NCBI GenBank assembly: GCA_024408105.1
Contig: JAKSVG010000001.1
Coordinates: 50,854 to 114,853, forward strand
From: Bacilli bacterium
Lineage (GTDB): Bacteria > Bacillota_I > Bacilli_A > RFN20 > CAG-826
Length of the DNA: 64,000 bases
Direction of reading: 5' to 3'
In this document: one piece after another, positions 11,605 to 42,181 of the stretch
How the letters are laid out: each line of letters begins with the position of its first letter
Position numbering within the stretch: position 1 is the first letter of the stretch
Position numbers and translations under genes: made by a program
The notes under the pieces: model-generated
The model's input: only the letters and a program-made list of their open reading frames with translations
What the model was told of the DNA's origin: nothing
The model's database searches: none

Positions 11605-13476
11605 ATGTCAAAAAAGAGAATTAACAAAGTTAAACATATCGATATTAGTGAGATAAAAAATCCTAAGTTTTTAGGAGGGCTATCTTTTAACGAACTCAAA
11701 GTTTTGGCTGAAGATATCCGTTCTGAAATTTTAAGAGTCACAAGTGTTTACGGTGGTCATCTATCAAGCAATTTAGGTGCAGTTGAATTAACTATTGCTT
11801 TGAATAGAATTTTCGACTTTTCAACTGATAAGTTGATATTTGATGTTGGCCATCAATGCTATACATATAAAATTTTAACAGGAAGATCACTTGAAGGGTT
11901 GAGGACTGAAAATGGGGTTTCTGGATTCCAAAAAATCAAAGAATCAAAATATGATTGTTATGAAGCAGGCCATTCATCAACTTCCATAAGTGCTGCAAAT
12001 GGCTTTGCCATTGCTAGAGATTTAAATAAAGAATCATATAACGTTGTAGCTTTTATTGGTGATGCTTCAATTGTTTCCGGCTTGGCTTTTGAAGGTTTAA
12101 ATAATCTAGCATCATCTAACCATAAGGTTATTGTTGTTTTAAACGACAATGGTATGTCTATTTCTAAACCTGCAGGTGGTGTGGGGAAAATGTTCGCACG
12201 CATCTCATCAGCTGCAGGCTACAATCGTATGAAGGTCGCTTATAGAAAAGTAATGTTTAAAACCAAATTCGGTAAAAGCGTGTATAACACAACTCTTAAA
12301 TTTAAAAATTGGTTTAAACGAAAAGTCGTACCACAAACTATTTTTGACTCCATCGGTTTATCCTATATTGGGCCTATAGATGGTCATAATATTAAAGCTA
12401 TTGAAAAAGCATTAAAAAGAGCTAAAAACACAACAAAATCAGTTGTTGTCCATTGCTGTACCTTAAAAGGTAAAGGATACAAATTTTCAGAAAATGACAC
12501 AACAGGATATTGGCATGGCGTTACCCCTTTTGAAGTCGAAACTGGAAAACCAAAAAATGAACACCCTGGTTTTAACTCCTGGTCTCATATCTTTGGAGAC
12601 TTAACAATGAGAATTATGGAAAAGCATAATAATGCTTATCTCATATCTCCAGCAACAATGAAAGGCGCAAGTATGGATGAAGCGTTTACTAAATATCGTG
12701 AACGCTCTATCGATGTTGGCATAGCTGAAGAACACGCTGTTACACTAGCTAGTGGCATAGCAGTTAATGGCTATCATCCTGTTATAAGCATTTACTCTAC
12801 ATTTATGCAAAGAGCATACGATGAAATATCACACGATATAGCGCGTATGAATTGCAATGCAACATTTCTAGTCGATCGTGCTGGTTTAGTGGGCTCTGAT
12901 GGCGAAACACATCAAGGCATCTATGATGTAGCATTCTTATATAGTGTGCCTAATACTGTAATCACAATGCCTTCAAGCATAGATGAAGCAAATTATTTGT
13001 ATGAAGAGTCGTTCAACAATCATGGACCATTCTTTATAAGAATACCTAGATGTATGGTGAAGCATGAAGAAACAATACACGCTTTATCCTACGAGTACGG
13101 AAAATGGCCAAAACTCAAAGAATCCCAAAACAAAAAGTTGGCAATTGCTGGGGTTGGACCACTCTTAAGAGAACTTGCAAAACTCATTGAAGAGAATGGC
13201 ATCGACTGTACAATTTATAACGCAATTTATATTAAACCGATGGATGATGCAGCAATTTCTGAGCTCACATCATACGATAAAATCGTGATTTATGACCCTT
13301 ATTCAACCCAAGAAGGCTTTGTAAATGCGCTAATAAGCAATTTATCGTTAAAAAACTTTAAAGGGCTAATTTCGCCGTTTGTGATAAAAAATGAGTTTAT
13401 TACGCAGGCAACAGTTGAAAAACAATTAGAACGATATGGCTTAATGCCTCAACAAATAATTGATTCAATTAAATAA
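11605..13476 (+). CDS. dxs: 1-deoxy-D-xylulose-5-phosphate synthase
   Basis: 623 aa with transketolase-like ThDP-binding motifs. Position after xseAB matches Bacillus. MEP pathway. Confidence 0.9.
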   Translation: MSKKRINKVKHIDISEIKNPKFLGGLSFNELKVLAEDIRSEILRVTSVYGGHLSSNLGAVELTIALNRIFDFSTDKLIFDVGHQCYTYKILTGRSLEGLRTENGVSGFQKIKESKYDCYEAGHSSTSISAANGFAIARDLNKESYNVVAFIGDASIVSGLAFEGLNNLASSNHKVIVVLNDNGMSISKPAGGVGKMFARISSAAGYNRMKVAYRKVMFKTKFGKSVYNTTLKFKNWFKRKVVPQTIFDSIGLSYIGPIDGHNIKAIEKALKRAKNTTKSVVVHCCTLKGKGYKFSENDTTGYWHGVTPFEVETGKPKNEHPGFNSWSHIFGDLTMRIMEKHNNAYLISPATMKGASMDEAFTKYRERSIDVGIAEEHAVTLASGIAVNGYHPVISIYSTFMQRAYDEISHDIARMNCNATFLVDRAGLVGSDGETHQGIYDVAFLYSVPNTVITMPSSIDEANYLYEESFNNHGPFFIRIPRCMVKHEETIHALSYEYGKWPKLKESQNKKLAIAGVGPLLRELAKLIEENGIDCTIYNAIYIKPMDDAAISELTSYDKIVIYDPYSTQEGFVNALISNLSLKNFKGLISPFVIKNEFITQATVEKQLERYGLMPQQIIDSIK

Positions 13477-13481
13477 CATTT

Positions 13482-13521
13482 AAGCATATCTTGGTTAACA
13501 TAATATTGATATGCTTTTTTA
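13482..13521 (+). terminator. Terminator-like hairpin after dxs that carries a dif-like half-site in its loop
   Basis: 9-bp perfect inverted repeat AAGCATATC / GATATGCTT followed by TTTTTT. The 18-nt loop TTGGTTAACATAATATTG is the repeat copy described in the findings. Confidence 0.5.
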
Positions 13522-13540
13522 TTTTATCTAAAATAATAAT

Positions 13541-14743
13541 ATGTCAAAGATTATTCTCCATATTGATTTGAACCAATTCTTTGTTCGCTGCGAAGAAATT
13601 AAAAATCCTAACCTTATAGGAAAACCAGTTATTATTGGACACGATGGTCGAGGCGGAATTGTTTCAACATGTTCATATGAGGCAAGAAAATTTGGCATCA
13701 AAAGCGGTATGCCAACATTCATGGCTATTAAATTAAATCCAAAAGTGATAATGATTCCAGGCGATTATAAATTTTATTCGTCAATGTCGCGAAAATTTAT
13801 TAATTTTATTAAAACAAAAGCAACGAATATAGAACAAGCCTCAATTGATGAGTGTTATGTTGATATGACAAAAGAATTAAAAGACGTAAAAAATGTTGAG
13901 CAATATCTTTTAGATATGCAAAACGAGTTATATGAAAAAACGGGGTTAAAATGTTCAATAGGCGTAGCTCCCACCAAATTTCTTGCAAAAATGGGGAGCG
14001 ATATGAAAAAACCAATGGGATTAACTATAATTCGCCGAAAAGACATAAGAAAAATGATTTATCCGTTGCCCATTAGTGATTTTTATGGAATTGGTAAGAA
14101 AACTACGCCTAAATTAGAAAAGATTGGAATTAAAACTATCGGTGATTTAGCAATAAGAGTAAATAATGATGACAAAGTCATAAAAAACGAATTAGGCAAA
14201 TTCTTTTTTGCGGTAAAAGATATGATTAATGGACAGAGCAGCGATTATGTAGACTCTGAACCATTTGATCCAAAATCAATTGGTAATAGCCATACGCTTC
14301 CATTTGATACAAATAGCTATAATGATTTGAAAGAAAATTTAGTTATATTGGCCGAGGAAGTATCACAACGAGCAAAAGAAGCAAATAAGGTTGGAACAAC
14401 AGTTCAAGTAGTTCTAAAAGATAACGGATTCAAAGTTATCAATAGATCTATATCATTTAGCAAGCCAACCAACGATTTTGATGTAATCAAATCTTATACA
14501 ATTCAATTGTTAGACAAAAACTACGATAGCGAAAAAATGATTAGGTTAGTAGGAGTAACACTTCAAAATCTAATTAACCCTTCGGAGGTTACTATTCAAA
14601 TGTCTATTTTTGACGATTTTGAGAAGATAAAAGAAGAATGCGCAACAAAGTTGCTCATTTCAGAACTAAATAGAAAAATGAACAAGTCTGTTTTTAAGAC
14701 TGCTGCAGAATTGGAGTCAGAAAAAAGAAATGGAAGTAAATGA
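13541..14743 (+). CDS. dinB: DNA polymerase IV (Y-family translesion polymerase)
   Basis: N-terminus HIDLNQFFV...C..., with the conserved Y-family palm, fingers and little-finger layout. Confidence 0.88.
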   Translation: MSKIILHIDLNQFFVRCEEIKNPNLIGKPVIIGHDGRGGIVSTCSYEARKFGIKSGMPTFMAIKLNPKVIMIPGDYKFYSSMSRKFINFIKTKATNIEQASIDECYVDMTKELKDVKNVEQYLLDMQNELYEKTGLKCSIGVAPTKFLAKMGSDMKKPMGLTIIRRKDIRKMIYPLPISDFYGIGKKTTPKLEKIGIKTIGDLAIRVNNDDKVIKNELGKFFFAVKDMINGQSSDYVDSEPFDPKSIGNSHTLPFDTNSYNDLKENLVILAEEVSQRAKEANKVGTTVQVVLKDNGFKVINRSISFSKPTNDFDVIKSYTIQLLDKNYDSEKMIRLVGVTLQNLINPSEVTIQMSIFDDFEKIKEECATKLLISELNRKMNKSVFKTAAELESEKRNGSK

Positions 14744-15608
14744 TGCAATCGATTTATTTATCCAATACCTTAGAGTAGAAAAAGGCGTGAGCGAGGATAC
14801 GGTCAAGTCATACTTATATGATTTAAAGCAATTTTTCTTAGCGTTGCCTAAAAAAGATACAGCTGAATTTCTGCCAGTTGATATAGCAGACTTTATTAAA
14901 ATACAAAATAAAAAAATGCTATCAAGTTCTACGGTTTTAAGAAGACTTTCATCGACAAAAAACTTTTATTTATTTTGCCAAAGAGAACATATTATTGATT
15001 TTAATATCAATAAATTTGAAACGCCAAAAGGGATGAAACATCTTCCTATTTCAATATCAGTTGAAGAGGTTGAGAATTTGCTTAATGCACCAAATGAAGA
15101 AAAGCCTGAAGGATTAAGAGATCGTGCAATGCTAGAAACAATGTATTCTAGCGGACTTCGTGTTAGCGAACTTATTATGCTAAAAATATCACAAGTCAAT
15201 TTTGACAAAGGCATCATAAATGTTATCGGTAAAGGAAACAAACAAAGAAAAGTACCAATCGGAGATTTTGCTTTGGATTATGTCCAAAAATATGTTCAGA
15301 CAGCAAGATATAAGAATCCAGGAAAAAATACTCCTTATTTATTTTTAAATAGATATGGTCAACCTATTTCCAGGCAATTCTTTTTCAAACAAGTTAAAAA
15401 ATATGCAGAACAGGTTGGAATAGAAGAAAATATCTCGCCTCATACTTTAAGGCATTGCTTTGCAACGCATCTTTTGGAAAATGGGGCTGAACTTAGAGCG
15501 GTGCAAGAAATGCTCGGACACACAAATATTGCAACAACGCAAATTTATACCAATATTTCAAGCAAGCGCATTATGAGTGCGTATGATTTGTATGTGAAAC
15601 GAAAATAG
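14730..15608 (+). CDS. Tyrosine site-specific recombinase of the XerC/XerD family
   Basis: 292 aa. Xer-like core-binding N-terminal domain. Catalytic R...HxxR...Y region (LRHCFATHLL, GHTNIATTQIYT). About 3 kb from the dif-like site. Confidence 0.8.
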   Translation: MEVNDAIDLFIQYLRVEKGVSEDTVKSYLYDLKQFFLALPKKDTAEFLPVDIADFIKIQNKKMLSSSTVLRRLSSTKNFYLFCQREHIIDFNINKFETPKGMKHLPISISVEEVENLLNAPNEEKPEGLRDRAMLETMYSSGLRVSELIMLKISQVNFDKGIINVIGKGNKQRKVPIGDFALDYVQKYVQTARYKNPGKNTPYLFLNRYGQPISRQFFFKQVKKYAEQVGIEENISPHTLRHCFATHLLENGAELRAVQEMLGHTNIATTQIYTNISSKRIMSAYDLYVKRK

Positions 15609-17791: not shown

Positions 17792-18561
17792 GAAGAATCA
17801 CAAGATTTTATAAAAATAATCGTATTCTAATTTGGACAATTATCGGAACAGGAACATTGTTTTTACTTTGGTGGATAATTTCATTGCTTGTAAATTCAAC
17901 ATTGTTTCCTGGCCCACAAGTGGTTGTTCCAGAATTTGTGGCGCATTTAGGCAAAGGGGGCACATATCTTGCAATTGGAGGAACATTAATAAGGTTATTA
18001 ATCTCGATTGCTTTAGGTTTTTTCTTTGGAATACTTCTAGGTATATTTGGTGGTCTTTCAGTTGGGTTTAGAGCATTTATGAGACCGTTTATTATTGTTT
18101 TTAGAACAATTCCAACGGCAGCAGTCGTTTTCATTATAGTCGCTTTGCTAAAACCAATGTTTGCACCGACAATTATCGTATTTCTAATTGTGTTCCCAAT
18201 TCTCTATGAATCGGTTGTCAGCGGAATTACAAACGTAGATCAATCAATTGTTGACGCACTAAAAATCGATGGAACAAATGTTAGAAAGGCAGTATTCAAA
18301 ATATATTTGCCATTATCATGGAGTTATATTCTTTTAGGATTGGTATCAAGCATTGGCTTAGGAATGAAAGTTGGAATAATGAGTGAAATATTAGCTGGAA
18401 GCGATTCGGCAAATGGGCTTGGAAAGCTAATTCGTGATGCTGCGACAATTGCTGATATGAAAGGCGTTTTGTCCTATTCGTTAATCGCTATCATATTGAT
18501 TGGGTTAATTGATATAGGAATGTATTTCCTGAAGAAAAAATTAAAAAATTATGCAAGATAA
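17788..18561 (+). CDS. ABC importer permease (binding-protein-dependent TMD with EAA loop)
   Basis: Six TM helices. EAA motif DALKIDGTNVRKAVFKIYLPL. No ATPase gene adjacent. Confidence 0.75.
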   Translation: MRRITRFYKNNRILIWTIIGTGTLFLLWWIISLLVNSTLFPGPQVVVPEFVAHLGKGGTYLAIGGTLIRLLISIALGFFFGILLGIFGGLSVGFRAFMRPFIIVFRTIPTAAVVFIIVALLKPMFAPTIIVFLIVFPILYESVVSGITNVDQSIVDALKIDGTNVRKAVFKIYLPLSWSYILLGLVSSIGLGMKVGIMSEILAGSDSANGLGKLIRDAATIADMKGVLSYSLIAIILIGLIDIGMYFLKKKLKNYAR

Positions 18562-18563
18562 CC

Positions 18564-18589
18564 AAGCCATTGAAATGTGGCTTTTTTTC
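18564..18589 (+). terminator. Rho-independent terminator after the permease gene
   Basis: AAGCCA-ttgaaatg-TGGCTT followed by TTTTTTT. Confidence 0.65.
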
Positions 18590-18760
18590 TTGCAAACCAA
18601 GCAAAAATTGGAGTGGTAGTGAATCATAATTAGTAGATATTTAGTAGTTTTTATCCACAAAAATAATTGTTGAAAGATGGTTATTAGATATTTTATGCAA
18701 TCATTTGTTTTCGAAAAATATTCAAAAAAGATTCGATGAATACTTATATTTATACATTTT

Positions 18761-18788
18761 GGTTAACATAATAGTGATTATACGAAGT
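18761..18788. other. dif chromosome-dimer resolution site (Xer target) at the convergence of + and - gene blocks
   Basis: Bottom strand reads ACTTCGTATAA-TCACTA-TTATGTTAACC. The XerC arm matches S. aureus and B. subtilis dif (ACTTCCTATAA / ACTTCCTAGAA) at 10/11 and 9/11. The XerD arm matches TTATGTAAACT at 9/11. Sits in a convergent intergenic region. Confidence 0.6.
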
Positions 18789-18796
18789 TATATGTT

Positions 18797-18826
18797 TTTA
18801 AGAAAACGTGCTTTTTAGTCAGCACG
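18797..18826 (-). terminator. Rho-independent terminator after rsfS
   Basis: CGTGCT-gactaaaa-AGCACG followed by TTTTCTT on the minus strand. Confidence 0.6.
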
Positions 18827-18833
18827 GCTTCTC

Positions 18834-19157
18834 TTACTTAGATTTTAGTAATTCATCAAGACTAATTCTATCGCGTTCTTCTTTCGTAAAGATGTTTACA
18901 ATTACATGATGAGCATCAATTAATATCCAACCAGATTCTGCTTTCCCTTCAATGTGCCCAATGCTTATTTTATTCTTTTCAAATTCATCTTCAATCAATT
19001 CGACAAGCGCTTTTAACTGTCTGTTACTTCCTGCTGTTGCTAAAACATAATAATCAGCGAATGGGGTTTTATCCTTAACATCAATTACTTGAATATTTTC
19101 AGCCTTATGTTCGTTTAAAACTTTTTCGGCTAAAGACACGGTTTTATCTTTTTTCAT
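18834..19157 (-). CDS. rsfS: Ribosomal silencing factor RsfS (Iojap)
   Basis: 107 aa, Iojap-like. AAGGAG RBS. Lies downstream of nadD/yqeK, as in Bacillus. Confidence 0.85.
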   Translation of the reverse strand: MKKDKTVSLAEKVLNEHKAENIQVIDVKDKTPFADYYVLATAGSNRQLKALVELIEDEFEKNKISIGHIEGKAESGWILIDAHHVIVNIFTKEERDRISLDELLKSK

Positions 19158-20262
19158 TATTTAACTCCTTTGGTAAATACATCTCAAAACATTTATCAGT
19201 TAATTCATTGGTAATATCTTTGTTGTGCGCCAATAAATATTTTTTATTATCAATTAACGTATCAATGAACCCTTGCTTGTAATTGGCAAGGCTTGAATTA
19301 ATTAGCCATCTAGAATCAAAACCTCTTGTAGGTTCTATTTTATCGCTCGTATAAACAACCATTCCTAATGGACTCATATTCTCGTTGCCTGTGCAATGAT
19401 ACTTGATTGCCTCTAACATTTCTTCATCTTCAATGCTAAATAATTCTTTGGCAAGGTATTCACCAATAAATTGGTGGTATGAAAACGAAGGAAAATTTAC
19501 ATATTCTGGATAATACTTTTTCATCAGCGAAACCATATTCTCATCTTCTTTATAATAAGTTTTGCCAACATCATGAAGTAATCCAGCAAAATAATATTTT
19601 TCTAAGTTAGACAATTTATTGACCTTTGCGATTCTAAGTGAGAGATTAGCAACTTGAATGCAATGTTCTAAACGATCTTTTGGTAAAATCTTTTCTAGTT
19701 TAGAAAAGAAATATAATTTATGTTTTTCAATATAGTCTAAAACTTTTTCAGGAATATCAATAGATTTCATCTCTCTAAAACTAGTCGAGCTTACATCTCC
19801 ACTCTCGAGAAAACTTAAATCAAGCATATGGTATGTCTTTATAACATTTTGATCTAGTTTTACGCTTGGTCGAGAAACAAATGTTATTTGAGCTAGATTA
19901 GCTATTTCCTCAGCGTTTTTCCATTCACTAAATCTATTGACCTGGTCTGCGCCAATTAATAAATACAATTTATCTTTTGGATATTTTTTCTTGAAATGAC
20001 GAACTGTATCAATTGTGTAGTTAATATCAGCATTACTCTTAATTTCAAAATCTGATATGGTAGTTCCACTCGGGCATTGCTTTATAGCCAATTTTAGCAT
20101 AGCTAATCGTTCTTTATATGTCGTTAATGGCGTTTTCCATCTAGGTGATCTAGCAGGAATGAAAATAACATCAGCATTCAACTTTAAAGAGGCAGCTGAC
20201 GCGATTCGCACATGTCCATTATGGATCGGGTCGAATGTTCCACCGAATAGGATATAATTCAT
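19144..20262 (-). CDS. nadD: Nicotinate-nucleotide adenylyltransferase NadD fused to a YqeK-type HD phosphohydrolase
   Basis: N-terminal GGTFDPIHNGH nucleotidyltransferase motif. C-terminal HD domain (H...LLHDVGK). 372 aa, where NadD alone is about 190 aa. Confidence 0.85.
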   Translation of the reverse strand: MNYILFGGTFDPIHNGHVRIASAASLKLNADVIFIPARSPRWKTPLTTYKERLAMLKLAIKQCPSGTTISDFEIKSNADINYTIDTVRHFKKKYPKDKLYLLIGADQVNRFSEWKNAEEIANLAQITFVSRPSVKLDQNVIKTYHMLDLSFLESGDVSSTSFREMKSIDIPEKVLDYIEKHKLYFFSKLEKILPKDRLEHCIQVANLSLRIAKVNKLSNLEKYYFAGLLHDVGKTYYKEDENMVSLMKKYYPEYVNFPSFSYHQFIGEYLAKELFSIEDEEMLEAIKYHCTGNENMSPLGMVVYTSDKIEPTRGFDSRWLINSSLANYKQGFIDTLIDNKKYLLAHNKDITNELTDKCFEMYLPKELNNEKR

Positions 20263-22058: not shown

Positions 22059-24677
22059 TTAGAAATCATCATCATCTTCAAATATTGAGATTTGTGTATA
22101 GCCTTTTTCTTCTTCAACTTTTTCTTCGGTTTGATTAGTAGAATTTTCGTTGTCAGATTCAATGGCAATTGGCTCAGTTTTTATTTCCTTTGATTCAATG
22201 TCTTTCGAGATATAATCATCGCCTTCGATGAACGGTATTTGAAGTGATAATTTTTTAGGCATATCGATTGTCATTTTCGCATAACGATCTATCGGTGTAA
22301 CATGATAGTCATCAACAACAATATCAACCACTTCTTTTATGTTGTTTAACACTCTAATGAGTGTTTTTTCACAATTTGTATCAAGTTTTTTAACATAAAT
22401 TAATTCGTGTGGTTCATTCTTAAATGAGCGGAAAACGATAGATGTTTTTCCAAGTCTATTTGTTAGATTTGTATTTGTAATATCATAGATGCGAACACAC
22501 CCTTTATCAGTAAGCAAAATTACCTTGCCTTTTGTATTATCTGCATCATATGTTTTTATAGCTGAAATAGTTGCTTTTCCTAGGTGAGAAAATGCTTTTA
22601 CTCCACCTGATTTCATGCCAGCAGATGGCAGTCCATTTTCGTTAAACATAGAAGAATTGCCATCACTAGTAAATAAGACGATATTAGAATTTCCAGTTGA
22701 GAAAGCAACATCGCATATTTCATCATCTTGAAGCAATTTCATGCACATTAATGGTTTGGAATATCTAATTACAGAGAAATCGCTTAAACGTAAACGTTTA
22801 ATTTGGCCATATTTCGAAACAAGAATAAAGAATAAATCATCTCTAAACTTTTCGATAACGTAGGCGCGCACAATTTTTTCATTAGGATTTAAGGAAATAA
22901 GATAATTTATGTGCTTTCCTTCATCTTTCCATTTATTTTCATTAATTTCGTGAATTGGAATATATAAGAAGTTTCCAACATTAGTAAAACAGATTAAATA
23001 ATCTGTTGTCATAGCCTTTCCAGAATAAATGCAAGCATCGCCATCTTTCATACCTGGCAATGGATTTACTCCACTGCTTCTATATGATTTAATTGATGAA
23101 TATTTAATATATCCATCACGACTAACAGCAAGCATAATTTCTTCCTTTGAAATAAGGTCACGTTTATCAATACTTATAGAGCCTTCTTTTTCAATAATTT
23201 GAGTTTTTCTAGGCTTACCATACTTGCTCGCAATTGCTTTCAAATCGCTTACTAATAAACGATCTAATTTCTTTCTATCTTGAAGTATTCCGTTAAGTGT
23301 GTCGATCGTAGACTCAAGTTGCTTTTTCTCATTGACTAAAGTAGTTAAATCTGTGTTGGACAACTTATAAAGTTGTAACATAACAATTGCTTCGCTTTGT
23401 GGCTCGCTAAAATTAAATTTTTCTTGTATGTTTTTCTTAGCATCAGCCTTGTCTTTACTAGCACGAATTGTATCAACAACATCATCCAAAATTGAAACTG
23501 CTTTAATTAATCCATCAACGACTTCAAGACGTGATTTAGATTTCCTTAAATCATAGTTCGAACGTCTGGTAATAACATCAACTTGATGGTCAATAAATGC
23601 ATCAATAAAATCTAATAAATTTAATGTTTTTGGTCTTCCGTTAACTATTGCAACATTATTTGCTGAGTATGAGGTTCTTAGTCCAGTTTTATTCATTAAA
23701 TAATTATGAATAACTTCAACATTTGCTTCTTTCTTTAAGTCGATTGCAATGCGTAAACCATCTCTTCCTGATTCATCTCTAACTTCAGAAATTCCGGAGA
23801 CGACCTTATCATGAATTAATTTATCAATCTCGTAAACGAGATTTGTTATTGTTGATTTATAAGGAATTTCACTAACAATAATTTGTTTTTCGTTTTTGTT
23901 ATCTACAATTTCAGTTTTAGCAGCAATTTCAATTCTTCCACGCCCAGTCAAATATATATCTTCTAAACCTTTGCTTTTATAGATATATCCACCACTAGGA
24001 AAATCTGGGCCAGGAATAAATTGCATCAAATCAATAGGTTCGACACGAACATGGCCAATTCGATAAATAACTGCATCTATTACTTCGCAAAGATTGTGTG
24101 TTGGTATTTCAGTTGCTAAAGCAACTGCAATTCCCTCGGATCCGTTAACTAAAAGGTTTGGGAATCTAGCAGGCATAACGACTGGTTCAAAATCAGTGTC
24201 ATCAAATGTTAAGGCCATATCAACAGTTTCTTTATCTATATCTCTCACCATTTCTTCAGCTATTTGGCTGAGTCTGGCTTCGGTATAACGATATGCTGCT
24301 GCTGGGTCACCATTTATAGATCCATTGTTACCTTGAAAGTCAATTAATGGATTATTTAATTTCCAATCTTGTGACATTCTCACTAAAGCTTCGTAAATTG
24401 ATGAATCACCATGTGGATGATATTTCCCCATAACTTCGCCGACTGTGTGAGCAGATTTTCGTGTTGGTCGAGTGAAAATATTGCCAGTTTTATACATAGA
24501 GAAGATTATTCTTCTCTGAACAGGTTTTAAACCATCTCTCGCATCAGGTATTGCTCGATCTTGAATAACATATTTTGCATATGTCGCATAACGAGTCGCC
24601 ATTATTTCTTCGACTGTTTCATTATGAATGTTTTCTTGTATTTCAATTTCGACGGGTTCTATTTTTCTTTTTGCCAT
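22059..24677 (-). CDS. parC: DNA topoisomerase IV subunit A (ParC). GyrA is not fully excluded.
   Basis: Type IIA topoisomerase A subunit with AAAYRYTEARL active-site Tyr and the QRRIIFSMY motif. No GyrA-box (QRRGGKG) is detectable in the C-terminal domain. Adjacent to plsY/yneF, as B. subtilis parE-parC is. Acidic C-terminal tail EDDDDF. Confidence 0.75.
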   Translation of the reverse strand: MAKRKIEPVEIEIQENIHNETVEEIMATRYATYAKYVIQDRAIPDARDGLKPVQRRIIFSMYKTGNIFTRPTRKSAHTVGEVMGKYHPHGDSSIYEALVRMSQDWKLNNPLIDFQGNNGSINGDPAAAYRYTEARLSQIAEEMVRDIDKETVDMALTFDDTDFEPVVMPARFPNLLVNGSEGIAVALATEIPTHNLCEVIDAVIYRIGHVRVEPIDLMQFIPGPDFPSGGYIYKSKGLEDIYLTGRGRIEIAAKTEIVDNKNEKQIIVSEIPYKSTITNLVYEIDKLIHDKVVSGISEVRDESGRDGLRIAIDLKKEANVEVIHNYLMNKTGLRTSYSANNVAIVNGRPKTLNLLDFIDAFIDHQVDVITRRSNYDLRKSKSRLEVVDGLIKAVSILDDVVDTIRASKDKADAKKNIQEKFNFSEPQSEAIVMLQLYKLSNTDLTTLVNEKKQLESTIDTLNGILQDRKKLDRLLVSDLKAIASKYGKPRKTQIIEKEGSISIDKRDLISKEEIMLAVSRDGYIKYSSIKSYRSSGVNPLPGMKDGDACIYSGKAMTTDYLICFTNVGNFLYIPIHEINENKWKDEGKHINYLISLNPNEKIVRAYVIEKFRDDLFFILVSKYGQIKRLRLSDFSVIRYSKPLMCMKLLQDDEICDVAFSTGNSNIVLFTSDGNSSMFNENGLPSAGMKSGGVKAFSHLGKATISAIKTYDADNTKGKVILLTDKGCVRIYDITNTNLTNRLGKTSIVFRSFKNEPHELIYVKKLDTNCEKTLIRVLNNIKEVVDIVVDDYHVTPIDRYAKMTIDMPKKLSLQIPFIEGDDYISKDIESKEIKTEPIAIESDNENSTNQTEEKVEEEKGYTQISIFEDDDDF

Positions 24678-24678
24678 A

Positions 24679-26619
24679 TTATTTTACCTCGTCAATGAAT
24701 GAGTCAACTTCGTTGAAGTTAACATTTTCTTCAACCCATTGTCTTCTTATAACTGTGTCATTTCCCATTAAAATCGATATTTCGCGAGCTGCAGAAACAG
24801 GGTCTTCAATAGTGACTTTGCACAATTGTCTTTGGGATGGATCCATTGTGGATTCCCATAATTGATTAGCGTCCATTTCGCCTAGACCTTTATAACGAGA
24901 AATTCTATATCCTGCGCCAATTTCTTTCTTTGCTTTTTCTAAATCAGCTTCATCCCATGCATATCTATAAACTAACTTATGATTCACTTCTTTAGAAACA
25001 CGATATAAAGGTGGCATTGCAACAAACAATTTTCCTTTTAAAATAAGTGGTTTCATATAGTTATAGAAAAATGTTAAAAGCAATGTTTGAATATGAGCAC
25101 CATCTGTATCAGCGTCTGTCATAATAATAACTTTTCCGTAATGTGAATTATCAGCTTTGAAGTCCTCACCAAAACCTGCTCCAATAGTATTAACAATTGT
25201 TGCAAATTCTTCATTTTTGAGCATTTTTTCCGTTGATACGGAATCCGTATTTAAAGGTTTACCACGAAGTGGTAGAATTGCTTGATGTAAATTGTTTCTT
25301 CCTTTTCTAGCGGTTCCTCCAGCAGACTCACCTTCAACAATAAAAAGTTCGTTTTTATCATAATCCTTTGATTGGCATGGAGTTAATTTATCAGACAAAA
25401 TCATTTCAGATTTTGCACGTTTCGTATTTCTTATCTCATCCTTTGCTTTTCTTGCAGCAACACGAGCATTTTGCGCATCAATGCATTTTTTAATTAAGTT
25501 TACAGCAAACTCTTTATTTTCGTTAAGATAATAACTAAAGTTATTATACACAAAGTTACTTACAATAGTTAGTGCCTCAGGCGTTCCAAGTTTTTGCTTT
25601 GTTTGTCCTTCATATTCTAACTTTTGTTCAGGGATCTTTAATGATATAACTGCGGTTAAACCTTCTCTTATATCAGTGCCCTCTAATTTAATTTTGCCTT
25701 TTAAAAGTTGGTTCTCTTCAGCATAATCATTTACTGCTTTCGTGATTCCTGATCTAAATCCGCTTTCGTGAGTACCACCATCTTTTGTTCTTACATTATT
25801 GGCATACGAATAAATATATTCGCCATAATCTCTTGAACAATATTGCATAGCAATATCTATCTTGATCGTGTCTTCTTCGCCAGAAAATGTTAACACTTCC
25901 CCGAGTTGCGATTTTTCTTTGCAAAGATTGGAAACGTATTCTTTAATGCCTTCTTTATAGCAAAACTCAACTTTTTCTCCATTTCTTTCATCAGTAAGAG
26001 CAAAAGTTACGCCTTTTAACAAAAATGCACTTTCTTGAATATGATTGGAAATAATCTCAAATTGAAAATTGGTTGTAGAAAATATTTTTGAATCAGGTTT
26101 GAACCTTACTAAAGTGCCGTGCTTCTTGGTACTACCAAGAACCTCTAGAGGTATAGCAAGTTTACCACCATTTTCAAAACGAAGATGATGGATACTGCCT
26201 GACTTAAAAACAGTAATGTCGCAATACTCACTAAGTGCGTTTGTAACACTTGATCCAACACCATGAAGACCAGCTGAAGAAGCATATACTTTAGATGAGA
26301 ATTTTCCACCACTATGCAGTGTGGAAAAAATTAATTGAACAGCTGGCATACCAGTTTGTTTATGAATATCGACCGGAATACCTCTGCCTTCATCTAAAAC
26401 GGAAACGGAACCATCTTTATGAATAGTTATGGTGATTTTATCACCATATCCGTTTAAAGCTTCGTCAACAGCGTTGTCTATAATTTCCCAAACAAGATGA
26501 TGTAAACCGGTCGAATTTGTTGAACCGATATACATTGCAGGACGTTTTCTAACGCCCGCTAATCCTTCGAGAATTTCGATGTCAGCCGCTGAATAATTAT
26601 TACTTTTCTCTAGTGCCAT
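24679..26619 (-). CDS. parE: DNA topoisomerase IV subunit B (ParE). GyrB is not fully excluded.
   Basis: GHKL ATPase, transducer and TOPRIM (EGDSAGG) domains. The first ATG is at 26619 (MALEKSN...). The ORF-track start at 26637 is TTG. Confidence 0.75.
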   Translation of the reverse strand: MALEKSNNYSAADIEILEGLAGVRKRPAMYIGSTNSTGLHHLVWEIIDNAVDEALNGYGDKITITIHKDGSVSVLDEGRGIPVDIHKQTGMPAVQLIFSTLHSGGKFSSKVYASSAGLHGVGSSVTNALSEYCDITVFKSGSIHHLRFENGGKLAIPLEVLGSTKKHGTLVRFKPDSKIFSTTNFQFEIISNHIQESAFLLKGVTFALTDERNGEKVEFCYKEGIKEYVSNLCKEKSQLGEVLTFSGEEDTIKIDIAMQYCSRDYGEYIYSYANNVRTKDGGTHESGFRSGITKAVNDYAEENQLLKGKIKLEGTDIREGLTAVISLKIPEQKLEYEGQTKQKLGTPEALTIVSNFVYNNFSYYLNENKEFAVNLIKKCIDAQNARVAARKAKDEIRNTKRAKSEMILSDKLTPCQSKDYDKNELFIVEGESAGGTARKGRNNLHQAILPLRGKPLNTDSVSTEKMLKNEEFATIVNTIGAGFGEDFKADNSHYGKVIIMTDADTDGAHIQTLLLTFFYNYMKPLILKGKLFVAMPPLYRVSKEVNHKLVYRYAWDEADLEKAKKEIGAGYRISRYKGLGEMDANQLWESTMDPSQRQLCKVTIEDPVSAAREISILMGNDTVIRRQWVEENVNFNEVDSFIDEVK

Positions 26620-26715
26620 ATATGTAAAACTCTTCAATTTGTGAAATTGATTATACCAAGAAAAAAGTTGAAAAGTAATCTACTTTTTTAGTATCATTGT
26701 TGAGGTTGTGAGGTT

Positions 26716-27453
26716 TTGAACATGGATATTATTTTATATAATATAGTAACAGCATTTTGCTCATTATTTTTTGGATATATTTTTGGAAGTATACCAACTG
26801 GAGTTATGGTTGGGAAGTTAATATATCATCGTGATCCCCGCCAAGAAGGTTCTAAAAATTCAGGTGGAACTAATGTTGGTCGGCTTTTTGGAAAAAAAGC
26901 CGGTGTGCTTGTAATTATATTAGATATGCTTAAATGTGTATTACCAACAATTTCTGCATGGGCAATTATAAGCTTTTCAGGATTAAGTGAAGCATTAGCT
27001 TCAGATACCTGGAGTCAATTCCATATTTTATACATTTATTTAACACCATTAGGCGTAGCTTTAGGACATTGCTGGCCATTATTCGGCGGGTTTAAGGGCG
27101 GAAAAGCAGTTGCGACATTCTGTGGATTCGCTGCTTGCTCATGTTGGGCAATATTGATTTTGGGTGTTATTACATTCTTCACAACATTAAAAGCAAAAAA
27201 ATATGTCTCACTGGCATCAATAATCACAAGTCTAGTCGCTAGTATTTTGGCATGGATTTTGTTTGTTCTAAAAATCACTGTTTTTCCAAGCCAAATTGAT
27301 ATCGTTATGTGGGGTGCTGGATCCTTCCTAGTTTGTGGGTGGGAATTCGCATCTGTATTAACGCTAATTTCTTTAATGCTAATAATTCGCCATAGAGCAA
27401 ATATCGTCCGTTTGGTTAGACACGAAGAAAGAAAGATAAAATGGATGAAGTAA
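26716..27453 (+). CDS. plsY: Glycerol-3-phosphate acyltransferase PlsY
   Basis: Multi-TM protein with PlsY motifs (GSGN-like NSGGTNVGR). Divergent from parE, as in B. subtilis. The first ATG is the third codon. Confidence 0.85.
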   Translation: MNMDIILYNIVTAFCSLFFGYIFGSIPTGVMVGKLIYHRDPRQEGSKNSGGTNVGRLFGKKAGVLVIILDMLKCVLPTISAWAIISFSGLSEALASDTWSQFHILYIYLTPLGVALGHCWPLFGGFKGGKAVATFCGFAACSCWAILILGVITFFTTLKAKKYVSLASIITSLVASILAWILFVLKITVFPSQIDIVMWGAGSFLVCGWEFASVLTLISLMLIIRHRANIVRLVRHEERKIKWMK

Positions 27454-29513: not shown

Positions 29514-30581
29514 ATGAAAAACAAATTGCCAAGAGAAAAAACAAAACGAATTCAGATCGGAAACACTTTCATTGGTGGAACCAATAATGTATTAATCCAA
29601 TCCATGTGTAATATTAAGACGGAAAGATATAAAGAAGTTGCTGATCAAATCAATCGTTGCGAAAAATTAGGAGCGGATTTGATGCGCGTTTCTGTTTTAG
29701 ATGAAAAAGATGCTGAAGCAATCAAAGAAATAAAGAAATTGATAAATATCCCTTTGATAGCTGATATTCATTTCGATTATCGCTTGGCGATAAAATCAAT
29801 TGAATCAGGAGCAGATGCTGTTAGATTAAATCCCGGAAATATCGGTTCTAAGGAAAACATAGAAAAAGTAGTCTCATTATGTAAACAAAAACATATACCT
29901 ATTAGAATTGGAGTTAATTCTGGATCAATAGATAAAGAAATAAATAATTCAACAAAATCAGTTCGCTCAAATGAGTTAAATGAATCAGCTAAAAGAACAG
30001 TTAAAATTTTAGAAGATTTAGAATTTTATGATATTGTAATATCATTAAAAGGGAGTCATGTACTAGAGACTGTTGAGGCATATAGACTCGCAAAAGACGC
30101 ATTTAACTATCCTTTGCACCTCGGAATAACAGAGGCTGGGCCAAAGGATATCGGTCTAGTTAGAAGCGTCGCCGGCTTAGCTCCTATCTTGTTAGAAGGA
30201 ATAGGTGATACAATTCGCATTTCATTGAGCGATGAGCCAGAAGAGGAAGTTAGGGCGTGTAGGAGATTACTAAAAGATCTAGAAATTAGAACTGATTATC
30301 CAACGTTGATTTCTTGTCCAACATGTGGAAGAACGCAAGTTAATTTGGTTCCTCTTGCAGAGCAAGTATTGAATTTTTTAGAAGAAAATAAAATTAATTT
30401 AACTGTTGCGATAATGGGTTGCATAGTCAATGGACCAGGAGAAGCCAAACGTGCAGATATTGGCTGTGCAGGAGGCAAGGGTCAATGGGTTATTTTCAAA
30501 AAAGACAAGATATTAAAAACTGTTCTTGAAAAGGATATCTACAAAGAATTAACATCTGAAATATTAAAAATGAAGTCTTAA
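29514..30581 (+). CDS. ispG: 4-hydroxy-3-methylbut-2-en-1-yl diphosphate synthase (IspG/GcpE)
   Basis: TIM-barrel N-terminal domain and C-terminal 4Fe-4S Cys ligands (CPTCGR...GC). MEP pathway. Confidence 0.88.
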   Translation: MKNKLPREKTKRIQIGNTFIGGTNNVLIQSMCNIKTERYKEVADQINRCEKLGADLMRVSVLDEKDAEAIKEIKKLINIPLIADIHFDYRLAIKSIESGADAVRLNPGNIGSKENIEKVVSLCKQKHIPIRIGVNSGSIDKEINNSTKSVRSNELNESAKRTVKILEDLEFYDIVISLKGSHVLETVEAYRLAKDAFNYPLHLGITEAGPKDIGLVRSVAGLAPILLEGIGDTIRISLSDEPEEEVRACRRLLKDLEIRTDYPTLISCPTCGRTQVNLVPLAEQVLNFLEENKINLTVAIMGCIVNGPGEAKRADIGCAGGKGQWVIFKKDKILKTVLEKDIYKELTSEILKMKS

Positions 30582-32876: not shown

Positions 32877-33740
32877 ATGAAAATTGAGATTTTAGAACCA
32901 AGTGGGTACTGTTCAGGCGTAAATCGCGCTATAGAACTTGCCATAAGCGCAAGAAAAGAAAATCCTTTAAAAAGGATTTGTGTCTTAGGAAAATTAGTTC
33001 ACAATAACGACGCTTTGCAAGAACTTAGTAAAATGAATATAGAAACATTGGATAATGATATGTCTGTTGTTGATAGTCTGTCAGATGATACAATCGTAAT
33101 ATTAACTGCCCATGGCCACGACAAAAATATTGAAAATATTTTGAATAAAAAGAATATTAAGTTTATTGATGCAACGTGTCCTTTTGTGAAACAAGCATTA
33201 AGAATTATTACAAATGCAATAAACACTAATAAAGAAGTTATTTATATTGGAAAGAAAAATCACCCTGAAGCAAACGCAGCATTGTCCATTTCAAACAAAG
33301 TACATTTGATTGATATTAATGAAAAATTCGACCCGTCTATTACAAACGACAAAAATCCATTAGTTATTTCCCAAACCACTTTTAGTGATTTAGAAGTCAA
33401 TGCTTTGAATAAAGAAATTAAGAATTGTATTCCTAATGCAACAATTCATAATGGGGTATGTAATGCTTCAACATCAAGGCAAAAAGCTTTGCTTTCATTA
33501 CCAAAAGATGTTGAATTGATTTATGTGGTCGGTGGGAAGAACTCAAATAACACAAAAACATTATTTAATTTAGCAAAAAAGAATTTTCCAAATTCAAAAG
33601 TATTAATGATTGAAAATAAAAATGAAATTAATAAAAAAGACCTTAAAGGTCTTAATTATATCGCAATATCTTCGGGAGCATCTACTCCGTTATCAATTGT
33701 TTCTGAAATAAAATCGTATATTGAATTACTCGGTAATTAA
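32877..33740 (+). CDS. ispH: 4-hydroxy-3-methylbut-2-enyl diphosphate reductase (IspH/LytB)
   Basis: 287 aa with three conserved FeS-ligating Cys (C12, C101, C195 regions). MEP pathway. Confidence 0.85.
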   Translation: MKIEILEPSGYCSGVNRAIELAISARKENPLKRICVLGKLVHNNDALQELSKMNIETLDNDMSVVDSLSDDTIVILTAHGHDKNIENILNKKNIKFIDATCPFVKQALRIITNAINTNKEVIYIGKKNHPEANAALSISNKVHLIDINEKFDPSITNDKNPLVISQTTFSDLEVNALNKEIKNCIPNATIHNGVCNASTSRQKALLSLPKDVELIYVVGGKNSNNTKTLFNLAKKNFPNSKVLMIENKNEINKKDLKGLNYIAISSGASTPLSIVSEIKSYIELLGN

Positions 33741-40464: not shown

Positions 40465-41336
40465 TATTTATAGCCTAATTCCTTCAGTATTTTTGGATTA
40501 TTAATCCAATCTTCTTTTACAGAAACAAATAGGTCGAGGAAAATGTGCTTATTAAAGTACTCTTCTAATGTTTTTCTAGACTTGATGCCAATAGCTTTAA
40601 TTTTCTTCCCGCCTTTTCCAATTACAATTCCTTTATGCGATTCACGGTCAACAATTATTGTTGCCTTGATATAAACTGCATCAGACTTGTGCTGTATTTC
40701 ATCAACTCTAACAGCCAGTTCATGGGGAACTTCTTCCTTTAAAAATTTAAGTAATTTTTCACGTATTATTTCAGAAACATAAAACGCTGCATCCTTATCA
40801 GTGATAGTTTCTTCATCATAGTACCGCGGCCCTTCTTTCATTAATGGCTTAATTTTTTCAAGTAATTCCCTAATGCCAAAATTTTCTATCGCACTCATCT
40901 CAAGGATTTCTGCATTTGGGTATTTATTTTTATAAATTTCTTTAATAGCCACAACTTCAGGAAGCCTAAGCAAATCAATTTTATTGATAATTACAAATAA
41001 AGGGCAATTTTCCGGAATGTTCTTTGCTATATATTCATCACCAGCATCAAACTTCTTAGATCCGTCAACAACTAAGACGATTGCCTCAACTCCTTTTGTG
41101 GAATCAATCGCACCTTGATTCATGATTCTTCCAAGGGAATGGCGTGCCTTATGAATTCCAGGTGTATCAACAAAAACAATTTGATAATCGCCATCATCAA
41201 ATATTCCTCTAATTGCGTTACGTGTCGTTTGTGCTTTTTCGGTAACTATTGATATATCTCGCTCTAAAAGAGCGTTAATCAAAGTCGACTTTCCCGCATT
41301 AGGCCTTCCAATAATAGCTACAAAGCCAGAACGCAT
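40464..41336 (-). CDS. era: GTPase Era
   Basis: G1 to G4 motifs (GRPNAGKST, DTPG, NKID) and a C-terminal KH domain. Confidence 0.92.
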   Translation of the reverse strand: MRSGFVAIIGRPNAGKSTLINALLERDISIVTEKAQTTRNAIRGIFDDGDYQIVFVDTPGIHKARHSLGRIMNQGAIDSTKGVEAIVLVVDGSKKFDAGDEYIAKNIPENCPLFVIINKIDLLRLPEVVAIKEIYKNKYPNAEILEMSAIENFGIRELLEKIKPLMKEGPRYYDEETITDKDAAFYVSEIIREKLLKFLKEEVPHELAVRVDEIQHKSDAVYIKATIIVDRESHKGIVIGKGGKKIKAIGIKSRKTLEEYFNKHIFLDLFVSVKEDWINNPKILKELGYK

Positions 41337-42181
41337 TATTTCAAATCATCCTCAGAAAATGCAAACGGAAGTAGTTCATCAATAGATGTTTCTTGAACTA
41401 AACCTTTTAGGTTTGCCATAAATATAGGGGCGCTCTTTGGCATAAGTTCTGACATAACTTGTCTACATGCGCCGCATGGAGCACAAGGACCTTCGGTATC
41501 CGCAGCTAATGCTAAGGCAGCAATATCGCCCTTTTTAACGCCATGCATATATGCATTATAGAGAGCGTTTCTTTCAGCACACATGCAAAGTGGGTAAGCA
41601 GAGTTTTCAATATTAGCTCCTAAAAAGACTTTGCCATCGGTTGTCAAAACTGCTGCACCAACTTTGAATTTTGAATAAGGAGAGTAAGATAATTCTCTCG
41701 CCTCAATCGCTTTAGTAACTAATTCATTCTTTTCCATTTTGTGTCCTCCGAGGATTTCATCCTGCAATTGAAACATAACGATTTCATCGTTCTTTTTCAT
41801 ATGATCATAGCCTAATAAATGAAGCATTCCATGAACAAAAAGAAATGACATTTCTCTGTTAACTGAGTGACCGAATTCTTTAGCTTGTTCTTCGGCTTTT
41901 TCATATGAAATAACAATTTGCCCTAAAGATAAAGGAATATCTGAAGAAATTGTTTCATTTTCATCATCAAAAAATGCAAAACTGATTACATCAGTCGGCT
42001 TATCATTTTTTCGATAATCGCGATTAATTTCTTGGATAGATTTATTATCTACAATAATCACATCAACGATATAATTTTCTTTAATACCTAAATGATTAAA
42101 GACCTTCTCAGTTAAATTTGAGAACTGATTTTCAAATGCATCATAAGATGCAGGTCCGTGATTGATAAAATCTAATTCCAT
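41336..42181 (-). CDS. ybeY: Fusion of endoribonuclease YbeY and cytidine deaminase Cdd
   Basis: Residues about 1-150 carry the YbeY H3xH5xH motif (HGMLHLLGYDH). Residues about 155-281 carry cytidine deaminase zinc motifs (CAERNA...PCGACRQ). In B. subtilis these are separate genes with dgkA between them. Confidence 0.8.
   Translation of the reverse strand: MELDFINHGPASYDAFENQFSNLTEKVFNHLGIKENYIVDVIIVDNKSIQEINRDYRKNDKPTDVISFAFFDDENETISSDIPLSLGQIVISYEKAEEQAKEFGHSVNREMSFLFVHGMLHLLGYDHMKKNDEIVMFQLQDEILGGHKMEKNELVTKAIEARELSYSPYSKFKVGAAVLTTDGKVFLGANIENSAYPLCMCAERNALYNAYMHGVKKGDIAALALAADTEGPCAPCGACRQVMSELMPKSAPIFMANLKGLVQETSIDELLPFAFSEDDLK

Follow-up and report, generated by a model that had tools for sequence, protein, structure and literature searches.

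A dif site at a convergent strand switch in an uncultured gut Bacilli bacterium, and a copy of its right arm at the dinB-xerD promoter

The 64-kb window analysed here (the whole stretch of contig JAKSVG010000001.1 given above, 64,000 nucleotides) contains one 28-bp sequence, at its single large switch between two oppositely oriented gene blocks, which we regard with high confidence as the genuine and ordinary dif site on the chromosome of an uncultured Bacilli bacterium from the gut. The right arm of this site occurs once more, on its own, beside the predicted promoter of the dinB-xerD operon, where we consider it, at slightly better than even chances, to be a putative XerD operator that represses or otherwise tunes that promoter. 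The dif call is routine; it fixes the terminus and the replichore polarity for a gut/rumen Bacilli lineage that is known from metagenome-assembled genomes (MAGs) only, and gives a clade-specific consensus. The promoter half-site matters more than the dif call itself: if real, it would provide a simple homeostatic circuit for Xer dosage, together with an unexpected co-regulation of DNA polymerase IV (Pol IV) with dimer resolution.

The dif site and its conservation in the lineage

Coordinates are positions within the window throughout, and the left and right arms are named in the bottom-strand reading of the site, whose parts are as follows.

18761..18788, minus strand: dif core, 28 bp, ACTTCGTATAA-TCACTA-TTATGTTAACC; from sequence read-out, arm search and clade conservation
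18778..18788, minus strand: left arm (XerC/CodV-type), ACTTCGTATAA; identical at 10/11 positions to the S. aureus left arm, and the XerC side by homology to the B. subtilis and E. coli dif sites (PMC5357621)
18772..18777, minus strand: central strand-exchange region, TCACTA; differs freely between relatives, with constant arms
18761..18771, minus strand: right arm (XerD/RipX-type), TTATGTTAACC; shares 9/11 positions with the XerD arm of E. coli, TTATGTTAAAT, and likewise 9/11 with the S. aureus arm, TTATGTAAACT; kept in relatives

The layout is 11-6-11, with two imperfectly palindromic arms round the 6-bp centre; the arms mirror each other in their inner halves (CATAA/TTATG) and differ in their outer ones. 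Compared with the reference dif sites of S. aureus (ACTTCCTATAATATATATTATGTAAACT, arms ACTTCCTATAA-TATATA-TTATGTAAACT; PMC11040001), B. subtilis (ACTTCCTAGAATATATATTATGTAAACT; PMC3025954) and E. coli (GGTGCGCATAATGTATATTATGTTAAAT; PMC3025954), the 28-mer is identical at 19/22, 18/22 and 16/22 arm positions, respectively. The initial annotation had described a bottom-strand 28-mer at 18761-18788, in an 11-6-11 layout and with 19/22 arm positions shared with staphylococcal dif; our read-out and alignment agree with this exactly, the figure for B. subtilis dif being 18/22.

The site thus resembles those of B. subtilis (served by CodV/RipX) and S. aureus in its 28-bp length, 11-6-11 layout, terminus location and 18-19 of 22 arm positions, the left arm having the common form ACTTC(C/G)TA(T/G)AA and the right arm TTATGT(A/T)AAC(T/C). 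It differs from them in its centre, which is TCACTA rather than TATATA, and in that the left arm of the clade, ACTTCGCATAA, is intermediate toward the E. coli arm GGTGCGCATAA. The E. coli dif/XerC-XerD/FtsK system has the same architecture and a right arm alike at 9/11 positions (TTATGTTAAAT), whereas its left arm agrees at 7/11 only.

When the window was searched with the S. aureus arms, leaving the 6-nt centre free and allowing <=3 arm mismatches, the 28-mer was the sole match, and 0/100 dinucleotide shuffles, which served as the null, gave any match. An independent-base calculation predicts 0.004 chance matches per window, or ~0.12 per 2-Mb genome. The window has nothing else at <=6 mismatches to the clade consensus, and 1.03 Mb of control loci, unrelated to it, gave no match at <=4 mismatches; a better dif match elsewhere, which the initial annotation had named as grounds for rejecting its call, did not appear within the 64 kb.

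Related loci came from a scan of a genome collection (L002-L010), a scan of metagenomes (L082-L112) and exact-protein look-ups of more divergent XerDs (L283-L290). The closest species representatives are MAGs from rumen and horse faeces, labelled Erysipelotrichaceae or Bacilli; one relative is a Candidatus Fiminaster (Bacilli incertae sedis), and the RsfS protein of the window is identical to that in GCA_024500545.1. Every related locus that reaches far enough (>30 loci, with XerD proteins 51-73% identical) has, like the window, one dif-like site, in the same orientation and in the same convergent gap between a dinB-xerD-deoB(-ABC) block and a (deoD-)rsfS-nadD block, with 1.4-6 kb between dif and xerD across the lineage.

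Across 26 distinct contexts, anchored on the site, the arms carry 1.1-2.6 bits of information per position, as against 0.4 bits at positions 13-14 of the centre and ~0-0.7 bits (mostly <0.4) in the flanks, such that the conserved block spans ~28-29 nt; a MAFFT alignment was also made. The centres of relatives include TCACTA, TGACTA, TAACTA, TGTCCG, GGTATA, TTGTCA, TTTCCG, TGTATA, CATTTA and others, and their arms stay ACTTCG(C/T)ATAA and TTATGT(T/A)AA(C/G)(C/T/A), giving the clade consensus ACTTCGCATAA-N6-TTATGT(T/A)AA(C/G)(C/T). Constant arms round a variable centre are the signature expected of a tyrosine-recombinase core site and, as judged from these comparisons, rule out chance. What we observed directly is the sequence of the site, that it is unique in the DNA examined, where it lies, and that it is conserved round a centre that varies.

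A copy of the right arm at the dinB-xerD promoter

A relaxed search for half-sites located a further copy of the right arm, upstream of the operon which encodes Pol IV and the XerD-type recombinase.

13493..13503, minus strand: isolated copy of the right arm of dif, TTATGTTAACC (read in dinB sense, GGTTAACATAA); putative operator for XerD
13506..13534, plus strand: promoter-like element TTGATA-N17-TAAAAT of dinB-xerD, with 10/12 consensus matches
13541..14743, plus strand: dinB (DNA polymerase IV), overlapping xerD by 14 nt
14730..15608, plus strand: xerD-type tyrosine recombinase gene, 292 aa, identified by NCBIfam, Pfam and a PDB homologue; 3.15 kb from dif

The half-site is exact and lies within the 64-nt dxs-dinB spacer, 2 nt upstream of the promoter-like element. 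In the window, 6 nt separate the end of the -10 from the dinB ATG. The half-site region has 20/22 nt in common with the dif spacer, right arm and flanking AA, and the half-site also falls in the loop of the dxs terminator hairpin. No left arm stands beside it, and for this reason it cannot be a recombination partner.

The dinB-xerD operon arrangement is kept in relatives, and promoter-like elements equivalent to that of the window are also found upstream of their dinB genes. The core TTNACATAA occurs in dinB sense, 35-60 nt from the ATG, in 21/26 upstream regions, the background being 0.055 per strand and kb. The TTAACA within the half-site is, in most lineages, 17-18 nt from TATAAT/TACAAT, so that it would itself serve as the -35; in the subclade of the window and in L009/L010/L283-285 the half-site abuts a separate -35, and in L286, L289 and L290 it is in the opposite orientation.

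The half-site also follows the dif arm of its own locus. Loci with ...GTTAACC in dif have GGTTAACATAA as their half-site, and those with TTATGTAAAGT in dif (L010, L283, L284) have ACTTTACATAA; in L290 the half-site is TTATGTTAACT, exactly as in the L290 dif, and in L004, whose dif ends ...AACA, it is TGTTAAC.... Co-variation was assessed in 22 non-redundant loci having both dif and the dinB upstream region, by scanning 110 nt upstream of dinB and counting a copy at <=1 mismatch to the locus's own arm. Such a copy was present at 18/22 loci, 11 of them exact, a level reached by 0-2 of ~300 equal-sized null windows from the same loci for nearly all loci (6/272 for L286). The mismatches to the own arm sum to 20, compared with 39.9 on average, and never fewer than 27, when arms were shuffled among loci; 0/2000 shuffles were as low.

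These observations lead us to propose that free XerD would bind the half-site at or beside the -35 and repress its own operon, and that the levels of XerD and Pol IV would thereby be tied to the amount of free XerD. In the wider form of this proposal, to which we would give an even chance, XerD would be a transcription factor as well as a recombinase in this lineage, acting at a long-kept half-site that co-evolves with the dif arm, and dimer resolution would be linked to damage tolerance. The closest precedent that we found is the speculation of Le Bourgeois et al. that XerS bound at difSL autoregulates xerS (PMC1914069). The literature searched, which included a full-text search on XerD autoregulation, gave no report of an XerC/D recombinase regulating its own gene via a decoy half-site; as far as that literature shows, the promoter half-site arrangement is an undescribed and testable regulatory link.

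Some of our data weigh against an operator. The arm-shuffle test overstates independence, the loci being phylogenetically related; a clear half-site copy is missing in L098, L101/103, L102 and L288; the outermost half-site base disagrees with dif in L099, L104 and L289; and the core of the half-site, TTAACA/TTTACA, resembles a -35 hexamer, so that its conservation may partly reflect the promoter. The last of these leads to an alternative, which we think possible, if distinctly the less probable, that the half-site is a promoter element only, a -35 hexamer with conserved flanks which resembles the dif arm by coincidence and to which XerD does not bind. Such an element would account for the TTAACA found 17-18 nt upstream of TATAAT/TACAAT in most relatives; moreover, some distant xerD genes are preceded by unrelated TTGACATAA strings, and the E. 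coli xerD upstream region has no dif half-site (the survey covered the loci of the lineage and E. coli xerD, XerD protein searches having given close lineage members only). However, the identity spans 11-15 nt and not 6, the element of the window subclade and of L009/L010/L283-285 is ~10 nt upstream of a separate, better -35, and arm identity is retained in either orientation (L286, L289, L290). The element also follows lineage-specific arm changes (TTATGTAAAGT, ...AACT, ...AACA) more closely than any of the arm shuffles. A promoter element alone leaves the 11-15-nt identity, the displaced copies, the flipped orientations and the co-variation unexplained, and a putative XerD operator is the reading that we retain.

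One extra half-site, at 5884 in L111, was set aside, since a coding sequence on the minus strand (ATG TTA ACC ..., read as rsfS) probably starts there.

The same upstream regions show a further regularity: the dinB ATG follows the predicted -10 by 5-9 nt, without a Shine-Dalgarno sequence (13529-13543 in the window; also in L002, L003 and L082-L110), and the dinB-xerD mRNA looks to be leaderless in most of the lineage, as read from these spacings. The group of L009/L010/L283-290 instead has a GGAGG leader at dinB. Within it, a divergent sublineage (L283, L284, L287-L289) has spo0A and a gene for a SpoIVB-type peptidase (Peptidase_S55) beside dinB-xerD, where the window has dxs; this gene content hints at a capacity for sporulation in that sublineage.

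The XerD-type recombinase and its probable partner

A Xer-family gene had been noted ~3 kb from the site, and it is indeed the xerD-type gene at 14730-15608 (plus strand), 3.15 kb away. Its product, named tyrosine recombinase XerD by NCBI (MCQ2792850.1), scores 326.4 bits against the NCBIfam XerD model TIGR02225 (cutoff 329.6) and 295.3 against the XerC model (cutoff 335.15), and passes the tyrosine-recombinase subfamily model NF001399 (307.4, cutoff 279). Pfam finds a SAM-like N domain and Phage_integrase in the 292-aa protein, and the top PDB homologue is E. coli XerD, 1A0P (8.5e-53), with which the GLRVSEL, GKGNK, HTLRH, LGH and QIYT motifs align. The 1A0P alignment and the Pfam domains show the catalytic R-K-H-R-H-Y residues and the two-domain fold; activity itself is predicted.

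In the known systems, XerC/CodV acts on the left arm and XerD/RipX on the right, and strands are exchanged pairwise across the 6-bp centre, resolving dimers (review PMC5357621); CodV favours the left half-site and RipX the right (PMC5357621). XerD is activated by FtsK in E. coli, and SftA and SpoIIIE of B. subtilis serve to position the terminus, direct Xer activation having not been demonstrated there (PMC5357621). By homology with B. subtilis and E. coli, an XerC/CodV-type protein would bind the left arm ACTTCGTATAA and the XerD-type protein encoded 3.2 kb away would bind the right arm TTATGTTAACC, with strand exchange across the 6-bp centre, such that Xer tyrosine recombinases would resolve chromosome dimers at the 28-mer late in the cell cycle. 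By analogy with these systems we infer that the arms are bound and catalysis takes place, that this depends on a translocase of the FtsK/SpoIIIE type and that an XerC partner exists.

We regard a two-recombinase system as probable, because the outer halves of the arms differ and are separately conserved, and the left arm is close to the B. subtilis CodV/XerC arm. The other possibility, which seems to us unlikely, is that dif is real and that a single recombinase serves it, the linked XerD-like protein binding both arms as XerS and XerH do, in a lineage without XerC. In its favour, neither the 64-kb window nor ~0.6 Mb of loci round the terminus in the lineage yielded a second Xer paralogue or an XerC; the recombinase gene is linked to dif (1.4-6 kb) lineage-wide, which recalls single-recombinase modules (PMC1914069); and the protein scores under both the XerD and the XerC equivalog cutoffs. 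Yet each of the differing outer arm parts is strongly conserved, the left arm, being nearly that of CodV/XerC in B. subtilis and S. aureus, speaks for a conserved reader of the XerC type, and the xerD promoter carries a copy of the right arm only. Classical xerC is, moreover, usually unlinked to xerD, so its absence from the examined DNA is expected.

In the difSL-xerS system of streptococci and lactococci and in difH-xerH the recombinase gene is likewise linked to its site, but there a full, atypical 31-bp site abuts the gene and one recombinase acts. Here, in contrast, the site does not immediately adjoin the gene: a canonical 28-bp dif lies kilobases off (3.15 kb, beyond deoB and ABC-transporter genes), and the promoter has a half-site of its own, which is non-recombinogenic. 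There is also a likeness to B. subtilis, in that the XerD of the window is RipX-like and its gene lies beside deoB; in B. subtilis ripX adjoins drm, which we take to be the parallel of xerD-deoB. Differences from B. subtilis and S. aureus are that xerD is here 1.4-6 kb from dif, co-transcribed with dinB in a predicted operon and preceded by a copy of the XerD arm in its promoter, and that the examined DNA has no CodV partner. As to E. coli, the XerD catalytic motifs align to 1A0P, and one difference is that xerD there has no upstream half-site.

The dif site at a convergent strand switch

The dif core lies inside a 272-bp gap between an ABC-permease gene (ending at 18561, plus strand) and rsfS (18834-19157, minus strand), and within that gap it sits between two convergent terminators.

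18564..18583, plus strand: intrinsic terminator of the ABC-permease gene, followed by TTTTTCTT
18807..18826, minus strand: intrinsic terminator of the rsfS-nadD-yqeH operon, followed by TTTTCTT

To the left of the gap relA, hisS, aspS, tkt, nusB, xseA, dxs, dinB, xerD, deoB and ABC genes are all on the plus strand; to the right, rsfS, a nadD-yqeK fusion, yqeH, yqeG, parC, parE, efp, sigA, dnaG, glyS, recO, era, dnaJ/K, grpE, lepA and others are on the minus strand. The initial annotation had described a clean split, plus to the left and minus to the right. The left block is indeed plus throughout, but three genes with strong Pfam matches on the right are also on the plus strand: plsY (26716-27453), ispG (29514-30581) and ispH (32877-33740). 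Counting long open reading frames, 47/50 are oriented toward dif.

Cumulative GC skew in the window reaches its maximum at 18810, 22 nt from the dif core, in line with the earlier prediction of an extremum near 18.7 kb; this result is not independent of gene strand. Local skew becomes positive across the three plus-strand genes on the right, and third-codon-position GC skew in leading-strand genes is negative (-0.14 left, -0.08 right) where the whole-sequence skew is positive. Because of this negative third-position skew, we attribute the whole-sequence skew to the first and second codon positions of co-oriented genes and not to a G-over-C mutational bias at silent sites. We therefore rejected GC skew as independent evidence for the terminus, given that lagging-strand genes flip the local skew and that third-position skew is negative.

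Strong gene-strand bias is typical of PolC-using Bacillota (PMC11040001), and it is this bias, together with the dif site itself, on which the terminus assignment is based. Judged by local polarity, dif would lie in the terminus region, at the meeting point of two gene blocks (replichores) of opposite orientation. That the 28-mer is a chromosomal dif site at a terminus-type strand switch, as had been suggested, is supported by its layout and arm identity, its uniqueness in the window, the terminators, the skew maximum, its conservation and the linked XerD-type gene.

Polar motifs of the FtsK-orienting (KOPS) or SpoIIIE-recognition (SRS) type, GAGAAGGG and GGGNAGGG, are essentially absent from the window. 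GAAGAAG is skewed 16:3 toward dif, which within 64 kb is inseparable from a coding-strand effect.

Other explanations for the 28-mer

Several points weigh against the assignment of the 28-mer as the chromosomal dif site and against its proposed partners. Its uniqueness and the skew maximum rest on 64 kb of the genome; the GC skew follows the coding strand and adds nothing beyond gene orientation; the score of the XerD hidden Markov model is 3 bits short of the NCBIfam equivalog cutoff; the search for a second Xer paralogue in the window and the lineage loci was negative, as described above; and neither the window nor the lineage loci examined have an FtsK/SpoIIIE gene. The 28-mer could also be the attachment or junction site of a mobile element that exploits Xer, either an integrative mobile element that makes use of Xer (IMEX) or a prophage, rather than the host's primary dif. 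More than 120 viral contigs in IMG/VR do have the same dif-type core, often near their ends, and in L101/L103 extra dif-like fragments and a GC-rich insert lie by dif. We nevertheless think this origin very improbable for the window: its site is single, with no second dif-like sequence at <=6 mismatches, it is directly flanked by housekeeping operons and terminators, no mobile, phage or integrase gene is near it in the window, and it keeps its position in >30 relatives. The gene content of the window is that of chromosomal housekeeping, and a plasmid origin was likewise rejected, PLSDB megablast having given no match.

The resemblance of the left arm to loxP calls for comment. The 13-mer TATACGAAGTTAT of loxP is present at 18779-18791 (plus strand), and the identity runs for 15 nt (ATAACTTCGTATAAT on the minus strand), that is, an arm plus 2 spacer bases. 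As the initial annotation had it, the 13-mer occurs here as a single arm, with neither the other lox arm nor the 8-bp lox spacer; loxP itself consists of two inverted 13-bp arms round that spacer. Both are core sites of tyrosine recombinases, and in an alignment of loxP with dif the cleavage points are 6 bp apart. The 28-mer, lacking the second arm and the 8-bp spacer, is not a member of the lox family recognised by Cre of phage P1. The T which creates the identity (arm position 7) is found only in the window, L002, L087 and L102, most relatives having ACTTCGCATAA, and the resemblance is incidental because it is limited to this minority variant of the left arm. These 15 nt shared with loxP could point to a loxP-containing cloning artefact, or the whole 28-mer could be a chance AT-rich match, ideas to which we attach next to no weight: 0.004 matches per window are expected by chance, the site lacks both the other lox arm and the spacer, and it is kept in independent metagenomes, mostly as ACTTCGCATAA and hence with no loxP identity. 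Conservation already refutes them, and the 28-mer is best regarded as an ordinary dif.

Further features of the window and its relatives

Outside the XerD arm of dif, by ~18-20 nt, lies a short flanking motif.

18731..18740, minus strand: flanking motif TTCATCGAAT, a weak dyad GAW-N3-4-WTC

Other loci have versions such as GAATTAATC and GATATTATC, and a TTAATCGAAT-like motif is found at a constant offset of +20 in 8-9 loci. GAW-N3-4-WTC is present at +17/+18 in 9/25 non-redundant loci, compared with ~0.4 hits per 10-nt bin elsewhere; the loci which have the motif at the same offset as the window are L002, L005, L006, L087, L089, L092, L096, L097, L099 and L104. The dyad may be a site for an accessory protein.

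In L101 (11251-11812), and likewise in L103, the primary dif is accompanied by a ~360-bp GC-rich non-coding insert, to which no Rfam family matches, and then by an inverted second dif-like site (11639-11666) and arm fragments; the arrangement resembles a small module bounded by dif sites, or else the remnant of an IMEX. Among the IMG/VR contigs (L163-L242), >120 have an exact ACTTCGYATAA-N6-TTATGTWAA, many of them being 4-13 kb long with the site near an end, which suggests, from these matches, that Xer-exploiting mobile elements use this type of dif. A ~700-bp direct duplication, with repeated CATGTTTACATAACTT and CAAGTTTACATAATAC strings, is found in L102 (15577-16381), ~0.6 kb from its dif.

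Neither Rfam nor ARAGORN finds RNA genes in the window. The topoisomerase IV genes parC and parE (22059-26637, minus strand) are 3-8 kb from dif, and this proximity is kept in L002-L004, L285, L289 and L290. Two gene fusions are present in the window, nadD-yqeK (19144-20262, minus strand, 372 aa) and ybeY-cdd (41336-42181, minus strand, 281 aa), and the relative L288 has a triple fusion, nadD-yqeK-rsfS, of 480 aa (12872-14314).

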